In this document: in pieces, positions 3,821 to 40,636 of the stretch
Layout: every line of letters begins with the position of its first letter
Numbering within the stretch: the stretch's first letter is position 1
Assembly (NCBI GenBank): GCA_965267575.1
Contig: OZ254086.1
Coordinates: 1,056,001-1,120,000, forward strand
From: Calditrichales bacterium
GTDB taxonomy: Bacteria > Calditrichota > Calditrichia > Calditrichales > J004
DNA: 64,000 nt
Direction: 5' to 3'
Position numbers and translations under genes: made by a program
The notes under the pieces: model-generated
The model's input: only the letters and a program-made list of their open reading frames with translations
Told to the model about the DNA's origin: nothing
The model's database searches: none

Positions 3821-5545
3821 TCAAGTCATCCTTTGCGGGTTAAGTCTGTTAACGATCATATCCGAGATGGACGCGCCGGAAGGCACCATGGGGAAAACCA
3901 TGTCCTCCTTCACCACGCGGAATTCCAGCAAGGTCGGTCTGTCGGCGTAGCCAAAGGCCTTTTCCAGCAGACTGTCCACCTCTTCCGGCGAGTCGGTGCG
4001 GAAGGAAGGCAGGCCGAACGCTTCGCCCACTTTCACAAAATCAGGATTGCTGTCGGAGAGATCGGTAAAGCTGTACTTCTCTTCGTAGAACAGTTCCTGC
4101 CATTGGCGCACCATGCCCAGAAAGCTGTTGTTGATAATAATAAAGGTGATGGGCAGCTTGTGGTAAGCGGCTGTTACCAGTTCCTGGATATTCATCTGGA
4201 AACCGCCATCGCCGTTTACGGAAATAACGCGCTTGCCGGGCATGGCAAAAGCAGCACCGATGGCCGCCGGAACGGAAAAGCCCATGGTGCCCAGGCCGCC
4301 GCTGGTAACATTTGTGCGCGGGTGGTTGAACTTGTAATACTGCGCCGTCCACATCTGATGCTGGCCTACGTCGGTAACAACCACCGCGTTGCCGCCGGTC
4401 TTTTCAGAGATGCGCTCCAGCACCAGTTCCGTGCGCAGCTTGCCGTCGTATCTTTCATAGTCCAACGGACAATCCTCACGCCAGCCGTTTATCTGTTCAT
4501 GCCAGGCCGAGGTGTCCGGCAGTTGATGTGTGCGCAGCTCAGCCAGCAGCTCGCTCATCACCTGGCGCACATCGCCCACAACCGGCAGATCCACCACCAC
4601 ATTTTTATCAATAGCCGAAGGGTCAATATCCACGTGGATTTTGTAGGCATCCGGCGCGAATGTTTCGATCTTGCCGGTCACACGGTCGTCGAAGCGGGCG
4701 CCCAATGCCACCAGCACATCGCATTGATTGACGGCCTGGTTGGCCCAATAGGTGCCATGCATACCCAGCATACCCAGCGATTGCGGATCCGTGCCGGGAA
4801 AAGCGCCAAGGCCCTGCAATGTCATCGTTACAGGAAAATTGCCGTGCCGCGCCAGGGCCCGCAGTTCTTCCGCGCCGCCGGACATGATGACGCCACCGCC
4901 CACATAAAACAGGGGCCGCTGCGCGTTGGCCAGAACCTCGGCCGCCTTTTTGATCTGCACACGGTGACCATTGTAGGTCGGACGGTAGCCGCGGATATCC
5001 ACAAGGTTGGGGTATTCGAATGGGCAGCTGTCCATGGTCACGTCCTTAGGCAGGTCCACAACCACGGGTCCGGGCCGTCCGCTGGCCGCGATGTAAAAAG
5101 CTTCGCGGATCGTTCGTGCCAGATCGCGCACATCACGCACGAGGTAATTGTGCTTGGTGATCGGACGGGTAATGCCGACAATATCCGCTTCCTGGAAGGC
5201 ATCGTTGCCGATCAGGTGCGTGGGTACCTGGCCGGTAAATACAACCACCGGCACGGAATCCATATAGGCGTCAGCAATACCGGTCACCGTGTTGGTGGCG
5301 CCGGGCCCGGAAGTAACCAGGACCACGCCCACTTTGCCGGTTACCTTGGCGTAGCCCTCGGCCATGTGTACCGCGCCCTGCTCGTGGCGGCACAACACAT
5401 GCTGCAGAAAATCCACGTCGTACAACTTTTCATAAATCTTGAGATTGGCCCCTCCGGGGTAGCCAAAGATATGCTCCACGCCTTCGCGTTTGAGGCATTC
5501 AAAAAATATTTCCGCTCCTGTATAGGTCCGGTTTTTATCACTCAT
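3821..5545 (-). CDS. ilvB: acetolactate synthase large subunit
   Basis: [29 protein letters not shown] and the TPP-binding GDGGFQMN motif. Confidence 0.98.
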
Positions 5546-7254
5546 GGCAGCTCCTTTTGCAGTTGTTCGATTGCAGGGTTGCGCAGCACGGCGCCCGTGC
5601 TGGCCGAGGTTACCAGGTGCGTGTAGCGCGCCAGGTAGCCGCGTTTTATTTTGGGTTGAAAGGGTTGCAGCTTTTGCAGGCGAAAAGCGATTTCCTCATC
5701 GCTGAGACGCACATTGAGGCTGCAATTGGGAATGTCGATATCGATAATGTCGCCCTCTTCCAGTGCGGCAATCGGGCCACGGGCGGCTGCCTCGGGGGAC
5801 ACGTGGCCGATGCAGGCGCCGCGCGTGCCGCCGGAAAAACGGCCGTCGGTAATCAGGGCAACTTTGCTGCCCAGGCCGCGACCCATAATGGCCGATGTGG
5901 GGGCCAGCATTTCGGGCATGCCCGGTCCGCCGCGCGGTCCTTCATAGCGGATCACCACCACATCGCCAGGCCGTATCTCATCGCCAGCGATGGCGGCTAA
6001 AGCCTCATCCTGGGAGTCAAAAAGACGTACCGGGCCGCTGTGTACCATCATCTCCGGATCCACGGCTCCGGTTTTTACCACCGAGCCTTGCGGCGCCAGG
6101 TTGCCAAACAAAACGGCCAGGCCACCGCGCCCGGAATAGGGTGCGCTCACGGGACGGATCACATCGGCGTTTTTTATGGCAGCGCCGGCGATATTTTCAC
6201 CGAGCGTTTTGCCTGTTACCGTCAAAGCAGATGTATCCAGTACGCCGTCCAGCTTGCTCAATTCATTAAGGATTGCTGAAATGCCGCCGGCGGCATCCAC
6301 GTCTTCCATATGCACAAAGGGCGTGGCGGGACTGACTTTGCAGATATAGGGTACCTGTTCGGCCACTTCGTTCAACATGGCCAGGTCAATTTCGATGCCG
6401 GCTTCGCGGGCAATCGCCAGCGTGTGCAAAATGGTGTTGGTGCTGCCGCCCATAGCCATATCCAGGGCGAAGGCGTTTTTAAAAACAGCCGGCGAAAGTA
6501 TGTCCGATGGTTTGATATCTTTTTCGACGAGGTAAAGCAGTTGCCTCGACGCCTGGCGGGCAAGCTCTTCACGTTTGGGATCTACCGCCAAAACCGAACC
6601 GTTGCCGGGAAGGGCGAGACCCAGAGCCTCCATCAGGCAGTTCATCGAGTTGGCCGTAAACATCCCGGAGCAGGAGCCGCAGGTTGGGCAGCCGTTATCT
6701 TCGAGAAGCTTCAACTCCTCATCACCGATTTCCCCGCGCTGGTGTTTGCTGACGCCTTCAAACACGGAGATAAGGTCGACCTTGTTGCCGTCGGGCAGAC
6801 GCCCGGCCTTCATCGGCCCGCCGGAGACAAAGATGACGGGCACATCGAGACGCACCGCGGCCATCAGCATGCCGGGCACAATTTTATCGCAGTTGGTCAG
6901 GCAAATGATGCCATCGAGCCGGTGCGCTTCCACCACGGTTTCCACGCTGTCGGCGATCAGCTCTCGGCTGGCCAGTGAATAGCGCATGCCGATGTGGCCC
7001 ATGGCAATGCCGTCATCCACGCCGATGGTATTAAATTCAAAGGGAATGCCCCCGGCTTCGCGGATGGCTTCTTTCACAATCCTGCCAAAACCCTGCAGGT
7101 GCACGTGGCCGGGAATCAGATCGATGTAGGAATTGCAGACGCCAACAAAGGGGCGCTGAAAATCGTCATCACTGCGGATTACACCGGTGGCCTTTAACAG
7201 GCTGCGGTGCGGGGAGCGTTCAAAGCCCTTTTTAATAAGATCGGATCGCAACAT
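5542..7254 (-). CDS. ilvD: dihydroxy-acid dehydratase
   Basis: [33 protein letters not shown] and ITDGRFSG motifs. Confidence 0.98.
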
Positions 7255-34519: not shown

Positions 34520-35935
34520 TCACGGGAAAATACCCAGCTGCTCGTAGGATTTAGCCACCTTTTCCAGGGAACAAATAAACGCCGCAATGCGCATATCGAT
34601 GTTCTCTTTGGCGTGCTTGCGCTTAATTTCGTCAATCTGCAGGTAGGCATTTACCATCGTTTCTTCCAGGCCGGAAAAAACAAGCTCCTTTTCATCCGCC
34701 CCGACGGCGATTTCGCTGAAAACTTTCTGGTCCAGTTTTTTGCCGGTAAGCTTTTCCATAGCCTGCAGAATCTTCTTGTTACTATCCTCTTCAAAACGAC
34801 GGCTCATGCGGCCAAAACGCACGTGGGACAAATTTTTCAGCCATTCAAAATAAGAGACTGTCACACCGCCGGCATTTAAGTAAAGGTCGGGGATCACCAG
34901 CACGTTCTTCTCAGCCAGGTAGTTACTGGCATCGGCCGTTATGGGACCGTTCGCTGCCTCGCCGATAATCTTTGCTTTTATATTTTTCACATTGTCCATG
35001 GTAATCTGGTTTTCCAGCGCCGCCGGTATCAGGATATCACATTCCATCTCCAGGGCGTTTTTGGAAGGCTCTATATTCCTGGCTCCGGGAAAATTCAATA
35101 TTGATTCATTTTCCCTGCGGTGCTCCATCACCTCATCCACATCCAGGCCCTTCTCGCTATAGATGGCCCCTTCGTATTCAGCCAGGCAAACGATTTTAGC
35201 GCCACCTTCCTGGCAATATTTTGCGGCATGATAGCCCACGTTCCCGAGGCCCTGCACGATAACACGCTTGCCTTCCATGCCGGGCTTAAGGCCCAATTTT
35301 TTCATTTCGTCTTTTTGATTGCATGCCTCGCGGATGCCGAAAAATACCCCCTTACCGGTTGCTTCGGTGCGGCCGCGCACACCGCCCTGAGACAACGGTT
35401 TGGCCGTCACGCAAGCCAGGGCGTCCAGCGAATCATTGGTCAGCGACATATAGGTGTCGGCGATCCAGGCCATCTCGCGGGAGCTTGTACCGAAGTCAGG
35501 CGCCGGCACATCCACGCCCGGTCCGATGAAGTTTTTTTTGACCAGCTCAAAGGTGAACCGGCGCGTCAGGCGTTCCAGCTCGGCGTCTGAGTATTTCCAT
35601 TTTTGAATTTTTACGCCCCCTTTGGCTCCGCCGAAAGGTACATCGACAATCGCGCACTTATAGGTCATCAGCGAGGAGAGCGCCTTCACTTCGTCTTCGG
35701 TAACATTACCGGCGTAGCGGATACCTCCTTTGCCGGGCAGCTTGTGGTGCGAATGTTCCGCACGCCAGGCTTCTACCACTTCAATGCTGCCGTCATCTTT
35801 TTTAAGGGGAAAAGAAAAGTGGCAAACCGTATTAACCATCTTGATCTGCTTAAGAAGACCGGCGGGATACTTTGTGAAGCTGCTGGCCCTATCAAACGAT
35901 TTGTTTACTTCCTTAAAAAAACTGATCTTAGACAT
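34520..35935 (-). CDS. gdhA: Glu/Leu/Phe/Val dehydrogenase, probably glutamate dehydrogenase
   Basis: [33 protein letters not shown] and [12 protein letters not shown] motifs. Confidence 0.93.
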
Positions 35936-36063: not shown

Positions 36064-36390
36064 ATGGTGTTTAAGCGCGATTGGATGAAAGCGGTATGGG
36101 CCATCGCCGGAATGATTCCGCCGGGCAAGGTGATGACCTATGGCTCGATATCGGCTTTGCTGCCCGGTGTTACGGCGCGTATGGTGGGCGCGGCCATGGC
36201 TGCCTGTCCGGAGGATGGGGACATTCCCTGGTGGCGGGTAATCAACAGCCAGGGCAAGATCAGCCCAAGGCCGTCCGGACACCAGCACCTGCAGCGCAAC
36301 CTGCTGGAGGAAGAAGGATTGATCTTTTCTGCCGGAGGCCGGGTTGGCCTGCAGCGCTACCTGTTCAGGCCGCCAGACACACCAGCGTAA
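36064..36390 (+). CDS. alkyltransferase-like (ATL/MGMT family) protein
   Basis: IPPGKVMTYG, ARMVG and PWWRV (Trp in place of the catalytic Cys). Confidence 0.88.
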   Translation: MVFKRDWMKAVWAIAGMIPPGKVMTYGSISALLPGVTARMVGAAMAACPEDGDIPWWRVINSQGKISPRPSGHQHLQRNLLEEEGLIFSAGGRVGLQRYLFRPPDTPA

Positions 36391-37270
36391 AGACTATATA
36401 TTCAATAAAGAAAAGCTTCCAGACAAACTGGTAAAAGGCCGTCATTTCTTTAGGATTTTCGGCTTGCAAACTTTTGCCGCGCAGCCAGAACCACAGTGCC
36501 AGCAGCAGATGGGCGATCGCCATGCTCCAGGGTTCCACGCCCGGCAGACCCGCCACCGCAAAAACCGCCAATAAAAGATATCCGCCGATTATAATCGTTT
36601 TGCCCCAGCTGAAAACCCGCTCCGCGCCAACCCGCAACGACAACGATCCGATTGAAAAGCGCTTGTCTCCGCGCATATCCGGGATATCCTTGAACCAGGC
36701 GATAACAACGCTTTGGCCAAACATAAAAACGGTCAGCAAAATAATTTTTAAAGGCAGGCCCTGCGTTGTTCCGTAGATGTGCTGGAAATGCAAAAACAGA
36801 AAAATGTTGACCAGCAGGCCGCGCACAGCAAGGATGCAAAAGGCTGCCCAAAAATGGAATCGTTTTAGGCGCACCGGAGGCAGCGAGTAAAGCGTGCCCA
36901 GAAGCAGGCTGCCAAACACCGTAATCATCAACCAGGCGCTTTGCAGCAGTGCCGTAATGATGGAAACGGCCAGCGCGCTGAAAATGATGATCCAGCCGCC
37001 GCGAATGGTGATGGCACCCGAAGCCAGCGGCAACCCGGGTTTGTTTATTTTATCGATTTCCACATCCGAAAGCTGGTTTAGGCCAACGATATAAATGTTT
37101 GCCCCCCAGCAGGAAACCAACGCCAGCAATAGCCCGCTAATGGCTTGCAGCGGATTTGCTGTAAACTGCGTATGGTCCCAGGCAATCACAGCCAGCGCGC
37201 TGACGCTGAGCGTGGTGCCAATAATCGTATGGGGGCGCGAAAAGGCCCACAGGTGACGCAGAAAGGTCAT
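36365..37270 (-). CDS. homogentisate phytyl/prenyltransferase (HPT/VTE2, UbiA superfamily)
   Basis: Start MTFLRHLWAFSRPHTIIGT; NIYIVGLNQLSDVEIDKINKPGLPLASG, YSLPPVRLKRF, KDIPDMRGD and FYQFVWKLFFIEY match the HPT motifs recalled from plants and cyanobacteria. Confidence 0.93.
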   Translation of the reverse strand: MTFLRHLWAFSRPHTIIGTTLSVSALAVIAWDHTQFTANPLQAISGLLLALVSCWGANIYIVGLNQLSDVEIDKINKPGLPLASGAITIRGGWIIIFSALAVSIITALLQSAWLMITVFGSLLLGTLYSLPPVRLKRFHFWAAFCILAVRGLLVNIFLFLHFQHIYGTTQGLPLKIILLTVFMFGQSVVIAWFKDIPDMRGDKRFSIGSLSLRVGAERVFSWGKTIIIGGYLLLAVFAVAGLPGVEPWSMAIAHLLLALWFWLRGKSLQAENPKEMTAFYQFVWKLFFIEYIVFTLVCLAA

Positions 37271-38106
37271 GGTTTTTGCCCGCTTAGTACGACAAATCGA
37301 ATCAATCCCTGCTTGTAGCCTTTTATCATGCGTCGCACTGTAAGCGCGGCGAACAGCGCTTCCCTGCCGGCGGCAAGCGTGGCAACGATGCTTTTGGGCT
37401 TGAGGATAATACGCCATAACTGCTTCCAGAAAGGGGCTACGAACTCTGTCCAGTCGGCGTGTTTCAGATTAACAAAACCGGCCCTTTCGGCAGCGGCGGC
37501 CAGCATGCTTCCGCTGACCCATCGTGGCAGGTGGAAATGACGGTTGATTTTCTCAAGCAGCTTTTTTTCATCGCCGCTCAGCGTATCGCTGGTTTCTTTA
37601 TGGCACCAGGTGGCGCAGGCAAAGTGTCCGCCGGGCTGAAGCAGGTTGAAAAAAGTGCTGAACAGCGCGTCCTTATCGGGAGCATGCTCTGCGCTTTCCA
37701 TGGACCAGATAAAATCGAAACTGTTGTCTGGAAGCGGTGGCCGGGTCATGTCGGCCCGGAGAAATCGGCATGACTTTTCTACCTTGTTCTGTCGCGCCAG
37801 CTGTCCGGCGCGCCGGGCCTGCCGGGGGCTGAGTGTTAACCCAATGGTTCGCACCGACGGCCATTTTTCTTTGAGATAAAAGCTGCTGCCGCCGATACCA
37901 CATCCGGCATCAAGAATATGCTTCGGGCTGTTTTCGATTCCGGCAAAGGTCAGCAACTCTTCGATCATGCGCACCTGTGCGAGGATGGGATCTTTGTGCT
38001 GCCCGTTATAATAACCGTGATGCATATGTATGCCCCACTGGCTCTCCCACAAGGCCGAGGAACGATCGTAAAAGCGGGCGATATTACTGTTTAGCGAAGA
38101 AGCCAT
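37267..38106 (-). CDS. gamma-tocopherol methyltransferase-like (VTE4/Slr0089 type)
   Basis: IARFYDRSSALWESQWGIHMHHGYY, AQVRMIEELL, ILDAGCGIGGSS, FDFIWSMESAEH, ATWCH and DWTEFVAPFW motifs. Confidence 0.9.
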   Translation of the reverse strand: MASSLNSNIARFYDRSSALWESQWGIHMHHGYYNGQHKDPILAQVRMIEELLTFAGIENSPKHILDAGCGIGGSSFYLKEKWPSVRTIGLTLSPRQARRAGQLARQNKVEKSCRFLRADMTRPPLPDNSFDFIWSMESAEHAPDKDALFSTFFNLLQPGGHFACATWCHKETSDTLSGDEKKLLEKINRHFHLPRWVSGSMLAAAAERAGFVNLKHADWTEFVAPFWKQLWRIILKPKSIVATLAAGREALFAALTVRRMIKGYKQGLIRFVVLSGQKP

Positions 38107-38972
38107 AGACCTGCCGAGATGAGCAAGATGATCAGTGCGGAGAGAAATACGATCTGCTTGCGGTTGAACAGCTTAACACCGCGCAGTTCGGGACGCGTGA
38201 AACGCGCCCACACAGAGTAAACTACTGCTGCCGGTATAAACAATCCACCAAAAAGCGAACCAATAAAGAAGCGCAACCAGCCGGAAACACCCAGCTTGCT
38301 TGGCATCTCAGCAGGCGCTTTGGGGACAGTGGTTGATGCCGGTTTTCGGCCGCTAAGGGCAATGCCATATTTCTCATGGCGTATCCAGGGCGGGGCCACA
38401 TATTTTTTCTCGATGGATTCAAAGCCGGCCTCGCGGAACCACTGCTCGTACTCGTCTTCGGCGGGGAACAGCATCCAGACGCGGGCCACAAAACGGGCCA
38501 GCTTTTGGCGCGGCTCCAGCGGACCTATCATCAGCGCGGTGCCACCGGGTTTTACTACGCGCAGGGATTCACGGATGCCACGGGCCGGGTCGGGCCAGTA
38601 TTCGATGCTGCCCGCGGAAACGTAGCAATCAAAGGTGTTATCGGGGAAGGGCAGGTTTTCAGCATCACCGCGGGTGAAAGCCACGTTTTTCAGTTGCGGC
38701 TTTTTGATTGCTTTAGACATCTGGTGCGGGCTCTGGTCCATCCCGAAAACGCGTGCCGCCGGCAGCTTTTCGACGACGCCGCCGGTGGTAAAACCGGTGC
38801 CACAGCCCACATCAACAATCCGGGCCTCATCGGCATTCGGCGGATTAAGCAGGCTCAGGGCCTGGCTACGCATCTCCTCCGTCCAGAAAAAGGGATTGAC
38901 GTAATTATCATAAAAGCGCGAAAGGAAGCTGTAAAACCAAAAGGCCGCTTTTTTGTTTTGCACGTATCGCAT
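38091..38972 (-). CDS. MPBQ/MSBQ methyltransferase, plant VTE3/APG1 type
   Basis: QNKKAAFWFYSFLS..YD..VNP..WTEEMR, DVGCGTGFTT, DQSPHQ, YVSAGSIEYWPDP.RGIRE, VWMLFP and a C-terminal hydrophobic anchor, all colinear with plant VTE3 as recalled. Confidence 0.9.
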   Translation of the reverse strand: MRYVQNKKAAFWFYSFLSRFYDNYVNPFFWTEEMRSQALSLLNPPNADEARIVDVGCGTGFTTGGVVEKLPAARVFGMDQSPHQMSKAIKKPQLKNVAFTRGDAENLPFPDNTFDCYVSAGSIEYWPDPARGIRESLRVVKPGGTALMIGPLEPRQKLARFVARVWMLFPAEDEYEQWFREAGFESIEKKYVAPPWIRHEKYGIALSGRKPASTTVPKAPAEMPSKLGVSGWLRFFIGSLFGGLFIPAAVVYSVWARFTRPELRGVKLFNRKQIVFLSALIILLISAGLWLLR

Positions 38973-39026
38973 GGGGGTCTACCTGCCAGTTTAAGAATGA
39001 TTGATCAGCTTAACGCATGCTTTAGG

Positions 39027-39160
39027 AACCCATCCCCAAATCCCTTCCCTAAATTTTAGGGAAGGGACTTTTTCCGGTTGTCGTTATTCTGGTATTTATC
39101 AACAAAACGCCGTTTTTCTCCCCTTCCATTGGAACAAGGGAAGGGGCCGGGGGATGGGTT
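39027..39160. repeat. REPIN/MITE-like element with terminal inverted repeats
   Basis: AACCCATCCCC...GGGGATGGGTT ends, each arm with an internal CCCTTCC...GGAAGGG hairpin; lies inside the tocopherol cluster. Confidence 0.75.
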
Positions 39161-39169
39161 CAATATTTC

Positions 39170-40153
39170 TCAAATCACTTCCAAACCTTTATAATCCCCA
39201 ACGATCTCCGCGCCGCCGTGGCTGCTTTTATCTTTGAGTACGAGCCGGTCGTTTTTCCACAGGTGGATGGAAATATATCCATTAAGACACTCATCAATCT
39301 CCCGCAACATGCCTTTTTCCGTGGGTGCTTTCAGGATCGCGCTCTTGCCCGTTTCGGCGCGGAGCTGTAAACGATAGTGCTCGTTGATCAATTCCATCTC
39401 GATGACAGGCGGGTTCGTCACAAGCCGTTGGATGCGCGATTTGTTGTAGGTGGTGAATTGGATCAGCCCGTCGTCGGGTGTAAGCAGTCCGGCAATAAAG
39501 CCGTTAAAGTCGCCGCGTATCCAGGGCACATGGGCCACGGAGACAAACAGGCTAAGCGGCTGCACGCTGAAGTGATTGGCCTGCAGCCAGATCCAGTTGC
39601 GCGGGAAGGCTTTGCCCCAGTCTTTCTCGATGTAGCCGCGGCCTTTTTCAAAGTTCAGGGTTTTGCCGTTTTCAACCAGTTCGCCGTCCACAACATGATC
39701 CATGCTGACCACACCGTGATAGCACTGCATAAAGGGCATCCAGGCATACCAGCCCATGCAGCCGGGTGAACGCACACTGGACGGCCAGCGCTTGTTGCCG
39801 GAAAAGGTAAGCGAACCGTTCATGCTCCAGTCATCATCCTGCAGGTCCAGGTAGATAAAACCTTCAGTGAAACGATTGGGTCCGATGCTGATATCCAGCG
39901 ACGTGCCGTAGGAGCGGAAGTCGCCCGCGTCAAAGCGGATATAGCGGCTTTTGTTTTTTGCACCATCCAGGATTTGGATAAACGCTTCGCTGTACTCTTC
40001 GGCTGGACTTTTATAAATACCGGGGATTATAGCCAGGCTGTGACCGTTTTGGGCATCGACGCATTTGTAATACCAACCTTCAAAAAAGGGGCCGCTCTCC
40101 TTTTTACCGTGGTAGCCTGCGGGCTTAAGGATACCTTTTATGTGTTGCAGCAT
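39170..40153 (-). CDS. tocopherol cyclase family protein (VTE1-like)
   Basis: GYHG...FFEGWYYK, GRGYIEKDWGKAFPRNWIWLQAN and a C-terminal GGAEIVG. Confidence 0.88.
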   Translation of the reverse strand: MLQHIKGILKPAGYHGKKESGPFFEGWYYKCVDAQNGHSLAIIPGIYKSPAEEYSEAFIQILDGAKNKSRYIRFDAGDFRSYGTSLDISIGPNRFTEGFIYLDLQDDDWSMNGSLTFSGNKRWPSSVRSPGCMGWYAWMPFMQCYHGVVSMDHVVDGELVENGKTLNFEKGRGYIEKDWGKAFPRNWIWLQANHFSVQPLSLFVSVAHVPWIRGDFNGFIAGLLTPDDGLIQFTTYNKSRIQRLVTNPPVIEMELINEHYRLQLRAETGKSAILKAPTEKGMLREIDECLNGYISIHLWKNDRLVLKDKSSHGGAEIVGDYKGLEVI

Positions 40154-40183
40154 GGATGAAATATAGGGAAAAAATTCCGCAAT

Positions 40184-40636
40184 TTAGCCTGCGGGAATCT
40201 TGTTTACCAAAACCTTTTCTTTTGATATTTGAATATTAAACCGGTGGCCTTGTATCTCGAAATCGAACGAATGATCTTTCTGCCACTTAATGAATTTAAG
40301 TCCCGATAACTCTCCTTCAAGTGAAAACTCTTTTGCAAACTGCATCATGTCAAACTGCTTGATATATTCAATTTTTTTGCAGCATCCCTCTTGCCCATAA
40401 GTAACTTTCTCAAAATACATCGAGTCATAGATTTCGGAAGTAGTTACAATAACTCTAAATGCAAATGATGTAACTTCCTCCTTTGTTTGCATTTTGAGCC
40501 AAATAGGCTCGCTTTCGCTAAGAAATGTTATCCATGGATAAATATCAGGTTGTGAAACGTCTTTAGTGTCTATCCATATCGATTGAGAATAGCAATTTAT
40601 TGTTAATATAGTGATAAATAGAAAAATTCTTTTCAT
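40184..40636 (-). CDS. hypothetical secreted protein, AT-rich
   Basis: 150-aa ORF with a signal peptide (MKRIFLFITILTINCYSQ); family not recognised. Confidence 0.6.
   Translation of the reverse strand: MKRIFLFITILTINCYSQSIWIDTKDVSQPDIYPWITFLSESEPIWLKMQTKEEVTSFAFRVIVTTSEIYDSMYFEKVTYGQEGCCKKIEYIKQFDMMQFAKEFSLEGELSGLKFIKWQKDHSFDFEIQGHRFNIQISKEKVLVNKIPAG

Follow-up and report, generated by a model that had tools for sequence, protein, structure and literature searches.

The 64,000-nucleotide stretch analysed here (the window; positions 1,056,001 to 1,120,000 of contig OZ254086.1, assembly GCA_965267575.1, from a Calditrichales bacterium) carries on its minus strand a gene for a 293-residue methyltransferase dependent on S-adenosylmethionine (SAM), at 38091-38972. 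By phylogeny, motifs and architecture, the encoded protein is a member of the VTE3 (MPBQ/MSBQ-type) family. The gene is the second of an operon whose other members encode a tocopherol-cyclase-family protein, a methyltransferase resembling gamma-tocopherol methyltransferase (gamma-TMT) and a homogentisate phytyltransferase (HPT). Family membership, the gene order, the tight coupling of the genes, the presence of precursor genes in the genome and the conservation of the operon in other bacteria are documented below. Due to these operon partners and precursor genes, methylation of a prenyl-benzoquinol on the way to a tocopherol-type chromanol is the most likely function. We consider it probable that the protein is a membrane-anchored, SAM-dependent prenyl-benzoquinol C-methyltransferase and that its operon makes an alpha-tocopherol-type product; substrates, product and the role of the product are what we infer from the sequences.

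The translation of 38091-38972 contains, in the order claimed, all five motifs on which the initial annotation of this DNA had relied: QNKKAAFWFYSFLS, WTEEMR, DQSPHQ, YVSAGSIEYWPDP and VWMLFP. They had been described as colinear with plant VTE3/APG1, and this was confirmed in an alignment of 11 sequences (A1: the window protein; VTE3 of Musa, Oryza and Riccia; one green-algal, one red-algal and one glaucophyte sequence; three bacterial proteins; one haloarchaeal-type protein), which has 59 invariant and 17 nearly invariant columns. In the glycine-rich SAM motif, D54, G56, G58, T59 and G60 are invariant, and the conserved motifs outside the SAM-binding core include FWFY..LS..YD, W.(T)..MR, DQS..Q, S.GSIEYWP.P and (W)MLF(P). 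The class I SAM-binding fold was recognised by PF08241 (E 2e-22) and PF13649 (E 6e-21), with a further match to PF01209. Hydrophobic segments were called where the Kyte-Doolittle mean over 19 residues exceeded 1.6. Two such segments lie near the C-terminus. The first (residues 233-255) aligns with the C-terminal hydrophobic segment of the plant proteins, in agreement with the membrane anchor that had been proposed; the second (residues 272-293) is shared in A1 only by two Bacteroidota-type rows, Lewinella W8 and a Rhodothermales metagenome-assembled genome (MAG).

A search of 1.84 billion representative sequences yielded 65 proteins at E<=1e-30, and named plant VTE3 proteins were among the best matches. 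Over the matched stretches, identity was 53% to Riccia, 51% to Adiantum and 49% to Musa, whose cluster bears the name '2-methyl-6-phytyl-1,4-hydroquinone methyltransferase 1, chloroplastic'. BLASTP against named plant VTE3 gave 45.0-49.8% identity over 217-258 residues. The likeness spans residue 1 to beyond residue 225 of the window protein and thus includes the N- and C-terminal family motifs. Relatives bear UniRef titles that refer to an 'MPBQ/MBSQ family SAM-binding methyltransferase profile'. Among solved structures, there was no match to VTE3 or gamma-TMT; for the VTE3-type protein, generic methyltransferases alone were found, at E 1e-13 or weaker.

For the phylogeny, 106 sequences were collected. 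Nine were dropped before the first tree (a fusion, a long plant gene model, and sequences that were fragmentary or seemed frameshifted), and 33 more were dropped for the careful tree (near-duplicates, a pair of PLEGL proteins on very long branches, two among the longest outgroups and part of the redundant eukaryotes). The careful tree was calculated with IQ-TREE under LG+C20+F+G4 with posterior mean site frequencies (PMSF) from 64 rows and 246 columns (28 bacterial, 26 eukaryote and 10 outgroup rows). A maximum-likelihood phylogeny had been proposed as a check on the initial annotation, and its outcome was favourable: the window protein, the 27 other bacterial rows and the 26 eukaryote rows form a VTE3 clade with support of 100/98, and haloarchaeal and other methyltransferases fall outside it, with which the quick trees agree. 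The proposed identity as VTE3 rather than as a generic UbiE/MenG enzyme is therefore upheld, the best UbiE/MenG model also staying under its cut-off (see below). Within the clade, the window protein branches off first, with the other 53 rows united at 100/90, and its end branch is long (0.65). Bacteroidota form a clade (97/99). Of nine rows from another family of the window's phylum (f8), seven form one clade (97/83), and the loci L096 and L101 stand apart. Forcing the window protein and the nine f8 rows into one clade made the tree 14.1 log-likelihood units worse, which the approximately unbiased (AU) test did not reject (p-AU 0.167). The view of the window gene as a rare bridge to plants is not supported: it is one of a large bacterial group (see below). 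In this tree it branches at the base, and the place nearest to the eukaryotes is taken, weakly, by the Solirubrobacter group (82/91). As far as its sequence tells, the window gene belongs to an old bacterial VTE3 lineage.

The initial annotation had also claimed a bacterial tocopherol cluster, and the four genes do lie head to tail on the minus strand in the order cyclase family, VTE3, gamma-TMT-like and HPT. The first gene (39170-40153) encodes a tocopherol-cyclase-family protein of 327 residues, which matches PF14249 with E 9.3e-28 and 97.7 bits (cut-off 26.6). It carries YIEKDWG and FPRNWIWLQANHF, which resemble the YxEKNWG and a neighbouring motif described in PMC4963081. Its nearest Atlas clusters are bacterial tocopherol-cyclase-family proteins, which we take as a lead, and no second cyclase gene was found elsewhere in the window genome. 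Between the cyclase gene and the VTE3-type gene is a spacer of 197 bases (38973-39169). The third gene (37267-38106, 279 residues) encodes the gamma-TMT-like methyltransferase, whose start overlaps the stop of the VTE3-type gene by 16 bases. In Pfam it matches generic methyltransferase domains alone. Residues 5-279 are colinear with the C-terminal half of P0127, a fusion of VTE3 and tocopherol O-methyltransferase (34% identity, E 7e-48), whose cluster includes a member named 'tocopherol O-methyltransferase' by JGI. The fourth gene (36365-37270) encodes the HPT of the UbiA family, which passes the equivalog model NF009525 (E 1.3e-107, 359.7 bits, cut-off 226) and matches PF01040 (E 2e-37). Its longest open reading frame (ORF) extends to 37417, and the NF009525 match covers residues 45-349 of that long version; the start is likely the ATG at 37270, which creates an ATGA overlap with the stop of the gamma-TMT-like gene.

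The window genome is a single contig of 4.73 Mb and is 98% complete. Four sequencing runs that contain this DNA were listed, all of one study and perhaps the source of the assembly, and no RNA run was among them. 4-Hydroxyphenylpyruvate dioxygenase (HPPD) is encoded elsewhere in it (448 bits, cut-off 277), as are four geranylgeranyl-reductase-like genes over cut-off, which are unlinked to the operon. Judged from profile searches and sequence, the set of tocopherol-pathway genes looks complete: prenyltransferase, ring methyltransferase, cyclase, gamma-TMT-like enzyme, HPPD and reductase-like genes. Searches of this genome gave no match to a reaction centre of type II (Photo_RC) or type I (PsaA/PsaB), and neither chlorophyll synthase nor bacteriochlorophyll synthase was found above cut-off. 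Genes for CcoG and for a fused cbb3 oxidase subunit I/II (CcoN/CcoO) lie in the window; the Atlas clusters nearest to the fused protein are mostly from Bacteroidota. These genomic signs point to an aerobe that is not a phototroph.

We propose that HPPD, encoded away from the operon, would produce homogentisate, which the phytyltransferase would couple with phytyl (or geranylgeranyl) diphosphate to give a 2-methyl-6-prenyl-benzoquinol. The VTE3-type enzyme would then attach the second ring methyl, the cyclase would form the chromanol ring, and the gamma-TMT-like enzyme would attach the final methyl. The predicted product is an alpha-tocopherol-type lipid antioxidant of a non-photosynthetic aerobe.

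The operon is conserved across bacterial families and in two or three phyla. Prokaryotic relatives of VTE3 had been taken to be mainly archaeal, a statement that is said to go back to work by Cheng et al. in 2003. This premise is out of date. Of 4460 candidates scored in a word-indexed search with the window protein, 2273 reached E<=1e-10, which makes for a large bacterial group. The top matches among the 120 listed are 47-57% identical to the window protein; they are mostly metagenome proteins, many of them labelled 'MPBQ/MSBQ methyltransferase' by JGI. Named homologues among the matches listed belong to Phaeodactylibacter, Lewinella, Lewinellaceae, Chitinophagales, Rhodothermales and Bacteroidota MAGs; Saprospiraceae and Solirubrobacter are also among the named bacterial homologues. 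In a search for loci related to the window gene, three of 80 were true relatives (L009-L011), and the rest were generic methyltransferases.

The phylum was surveyed in 86 genomes, counting that of the window. At E<=1e-40, an orthologue was found in the window genome and in 12 of the 16 genomes of family f8. None of the 69 other genomes had one, so that the window genome is the sole carrier among the 70 outside f8. Likewise, no orthologue was present in 40 genomes related at the level of family, order or class, in which the best match reached 32% identity (E 1.6e-15). In 11 of the 12 f8 loci, the order is VTE3, gamma-TMT, HPT; the twelfth locus stops after VTE3. A cyclase gene lies directly upstream of VTE3 in six of the 12, is not adjacent in four, and two have too little upstream sequence. 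Identity between the window and f8 is 43-44% for the cyclase (six loci), 43-48% for the gamma-TMT-like protein (11 loci), 53-61% for HPT and 55-62% for the VTE3 core. Ordinary proteins compared with the same f8 genomes gave similar values (nicotinate phosphoribosyltransferase 42-43%, IlvD 66-67%, CcoN/O 74%), and old descent with losses is therefore as compatible with the data as an old transfer. The operon of the window genome could stem from descent in the phylum with many losses or from an old transfer.

Outside the phylum, a Saprospiraceae MAG has a geranylgeranyl reductase gene followed by VTE3, gamma-TMT and HPT, with the cyclase gene on another contig. A second bacterial group of about 266 residues includes Solirubrobacter species. 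A 585-residue metagenome protein of a high-GC Solirubrobacter-like group (P0486) consists of one ORF with a VTE3-type N-terminus and an HPT-type C-terminus, and the latter passes the homogentisate phytyltransferase equivalog (233 bits, cut-off 226; profile positions 140-308). Either the fusion is genuine or a frameshift has joined what are two neighbouring genes, and in both cases VTE3 and HPT lie side by side in this group too. Separately, four divergent VTE3-like metagenome proteins that start with ...PLEGLCSQTEA... (P0142, P0165, P0230 and P0231) are 34-41% identical to the window protein. P0142 and P0165 came out as a pair beside one f8 row in a quick tree, with a branch length of 3.8, a placement that is probably an artefact.

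Several observations weigh against the proposed function. Neither Pfam-A nor NCBIfam returned a VTE3-specific model for the window protein and all NCBIfam matches are below cut-off, so that no curated threshold is passed. The tree program warned of long outgroup branches, and together with the long branch of the window protein this means that its basal place may be an attraction artefact. The PF14249 match of the cyclase is partial, the best of its two stretches covering profile positions 142-335 of 335. By sequence, this protein resembles widespread bacterial cyclase-family proteins that lack an assigned function, and cyclase-like proteins of this kind are reported from heterotrophic bacteria in PMC4963081. 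The four reductase-like genes may serve other lipids. Finally, the division of the two methylations between the two methyltransferases is assigned by analogy with plants.

Some of these points also feed the alternative that survives best. The operon may make another homogentisate-derived prenyl lipid, such as a tocotrienol, a plastochromanol-like compound or a methylated prenyl-benzoquinone serving as a redox quinone, in which case the VTE3-type enzyme would methylate the intermediate of that lipid instead of MPBQ. The widespread bacterial cyclase-family proteins without a known role are compatible with this, and no geranylgeranyl reductase gene adjoins the window operon, unlike the situation in the Saprospiraceae MAG. 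According to PMC5745509, the solanesyl intermediate of plastoquinone is a further substrate of plant VTE3, and for a non-photosynthetic alga that shares the three enzymes but has no reductase, PMC11528492 infers tocotrienol synthesis. However, the prenyltransferase scores above the curated cut-off for 'homogentisate phytyltransferase', the genome does hold four geranylgeranyl-reductase-like genes, and a cyclase gene and a gamma-TMT-like gene in one operon point to a chromanol and not to a quinone as the end product. On balance, we regard this alternative as unlikely, though it deserves to be kept in mind, and prefer the tocopherol-type pathway.

The initial annotation had offered two explanations for a plant-type VTE3 in a bacterium: kinship with the donor of the plant gene, or transfer from a eukaryote. 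All 26 eukaryote rows form one clade (100/91), composed of green algae and plants, red algae and a glaucophyte, and a group of fused proteins. A character independent of the tree was found in a four-residue insertion, GLIM, after a conserved R-x-H. It is present in 24 of the 26 eukaryote rows, the other two being broken at this place, and in none of the 28 bacterial rows (window included) or the 10 outgroup rows. The single eukaryote clade and this indel together speak against an origin of bacterial VTE3 in crown plants or algae, and on these sequences a transfer from crown algae or plants to bacteria is unlikely. The second explanation is thus disfavoured in its crown form. The first is not established either. 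In the best tree, bacteria are paraphyletic around the eukaryotes, as if the latter took VTE3 from a bacterium, and the sister of the eukaryotes is, weakly, the Solirubrobacter group. Still, a tree with all 28 bacterial rows in one clade was merely 1.37 log-likelihood units worse and was not rejected (p-AU 0.433), and the branching order therefore leaves the direction of transfer unfixed.

The fused-protein group within the eukaryote clade (100/100) comprises long proteins with an N-terminal VTE3-type domain: P0127 (680 residues, metagenome), P0130 (750 residues, eukprot) and P0134 (1197 residues). In P0127, the C-terminal half is of the gamma-TMT type, and its cluster has separate members with the annotations MPBQ/MSBQ methyltransferase and tocopherol O-methyltransferase. 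PMC11014865 gives dinoflagellate VTE3 as likely 'from bacteria', so that bacterial homologues have already entered published trees.

In Synechocystis, the methylation of MPBQ and MSBQ is reportedly performed by Sll0418, a paralogue of gamma-TMT, and cyanobacteria are said to combine two enzymes of the gamma-TMT type in this pathway, statements that likewise are said to go back to Cheng et al. in 2003. A wider reading can be tentatively put forward: non-photosynthetic aerobic bacteria of at least two or three phyla (the window's phylum, Bacteroidota and in part Actinomycetota) may make tocopherols by means of the conserved operon, and one such bacterium may have given VTE3 to the plant and algal ancestor, where it replaced the Sll0418-type enzyme. 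The donor would then have been neither the cyanobacterial endosymbiont nor an archaeon. We regard this joint claim as less likely than not.

A rival account of the evolution holds that bacterial VTE3, the window's included, descends from a gene of an early (stem) plastid-bearing eukaryote and that the bacterial operon is secondary. A bacterial clade sister to the eukaryotes, which the AU test did not reject, would fit this, as would the fact that plants and the bacterial operon alike pair a VTE3-type with a gamma-TMT-type enzyme. Against it stand the paraphyly of bacteria in the best tree and the tree outgroups that could be labelled, which are archaeal. In addition, all 28 bacterial rows have the short outgroup state at the GLIM indel, and an operon conserved in two or three phyla is hard to build from dispersed eukaryotic genes. 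We consider such an origin improbable.

Least of all can the protein be explained as an ordinary quinone methyltransferase of the UbiE/MenG type that shares with VTE3 the class I fold alone: its best NCBIfam match is indeed TIGR01934 MenG_MenH_UbiE (E 3.8e-19), and PF01209 matches, but the former scores 68.9 bits against a cut-off of 158.35 and covers the SAM-binding core alone (residues 45-162), whereas plant-VTE3 identity takes in the family motifs at both ends; both the tree placement and alignment A1 contradict this very remote reading. The UbiE/MenG (PRK00216-type) model NF001244 (58.9 bits, cut-off 216) and the model for the methyl-plastoquinone methyltransferase MpqE, NF052510 (37.3 bits, cut-off 335), were not reached. 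The best other methyltransferase match in the window genome itself is 35% identical, which together with the 32% in the 40 related genomes argues in the same direction.

Set beside the known systems, the operon has the same partners as plant and algal VTE3/APG1, namely HPT, cyclase and gamma-TMT-type enzymes, and its VTE3-type protein has a C-terminal hydrophobic segment at the same place. Unlike the plant and algal proteins, it has no N-terminal transit peptide and begins at the conserved domain; it lacks the GLIM insertion, has the second C-terminal segment, and is encoded in an operon of a non-phototroph, with an activity that is predicted. The VTE3-type genes of Bacteroidota and f8 are closer in kind, with 45-58% identity to the window protein, the same length class, a C-terminus with two segments and the gene order VTE3, gamma-TMT, HPT, often with a cyclase gene upstream. 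The window protein nevertheless branches outside all of them in the careful tree, although a clade with f8 was not rejected. The Solirubrobacter-type proteins (Actinomycetota) are also in the VTE3 clade and 46-49% identical to the window protein, but differ from it in having one C-terminal hydrophobic segment and an intermediate indel state, and in their weakly supported place beside the eukaryotes.

The haloarchaeal VTE3-like proteins (Haloferacaceae MAG, archaeon A07HR60; 205-230 residues) share 47-49% identity with the window protein over the catalytic domain. Unlike it, they are outside the VTE3 clade and have no C-terminal membrane segment; neither genome has a cyclase match, and no pathway neighbours were recognised at L010. 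JGI names them as demethylmenaquinone/ubiquinone-type methylases. The cyanobacterial Sll0418-type enzyme reportedly catalyses the reaction that is proposed for the window enzyme but would belong to another methyltransferase lineage. In the window operon, the gamma-TMT-type fold is carried by the gamma-TMT-like neighbour, which matches the VTE3-type protein over the SAM-binding core alone (31%, residues 24-144).

In the spacer between the cyclase gene and the VTE3-type gene, a perfect palindrome with a 12-bp stem was found at 39041-39067 (TCCCTTCCCTAAA/TTTAGGGAAGGGA). Termination, attenuation and operator function are candidate roles for it. Between 36000 and 41500, terminator-like sites were no more frequent than in shuffled sequences (eight detected, 8.5 expected). 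A promoter scan of the same region gave seven sites, not above the shuffles (5.1). Thirty bases upstream of the cyclase gene lies an ORF of 150 residues on the same strand (40184-40636) with a hydrophobic N-terminus and no match in Pfam or NCBIfam. A terminator-like hairpin at 40177-40194 overlaps its end, and it is therefore perhaps a separate transcription unit. The possibility of a compositional island was rejected: the GC content of the operon region (0.536-0.541) is inside the range of the window (0.44-0.58).

The remainder of the window is ordinary chromosome with leuB, ilvC, ilvD, putP and others. Two of its genes showed unusual affinities. A glutamate dehydrogenase gene beside the operon (34520-35935, minus strand) has its best NCBIfam matches to archaeal/haloarchaeal-type models, at 361 bits and under the cut-offs; homologues of 38-40% identity are present in three of five genomes of the same family, and none at E<=1e-50 in the other two. 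The ilvD gene (5542-7254, minus strand) encodes a protein 66-67% identical to those of three f8 genomes and only 44% identical to the single match in a genome of its own family (G003), a match interrupted by a TAG. For two other window proteins, the closer homologues are, as expected, those of the same family. The IlvD pattern might reflect a transfer, comparison with another paralogue, or decay of the G003 gene to a pseudogene.

According to PMC5745509, photosynthetic organisms alone make tocochromanols. Full-text literature searches, outside which most subscription journals lie, turned up no account of a bacterial tocopherol operon, so that an earlier description is possible, and annotation pipelines already label these proteins 'MPBQ/MSBQ methyltransferase'. 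The bacterial group to which the window gene belongs is widespread and apparently unstudied, and the gene is not a unique link to plants. If the product were confirmed, vitamin E would count among the antioxidants of bacteria and not of plants alone, engineering could draw on compact operons, and tests could be made in cultured genera with named homologues (Lewinella, Phaeodactylibacter and Solirubrobacter). The finding also bears on the old puzzle of a plant methyltransferase that is unrelated to the cyanobacterial one: as far as can be judged from the sequences, the closest relatives of plant VTE3 are bacterial, and the haloarchaeal proteins are further out. Its main interest is thus as a handle on bacterial vitamin E synthesis and on the origin of plant VTE3.

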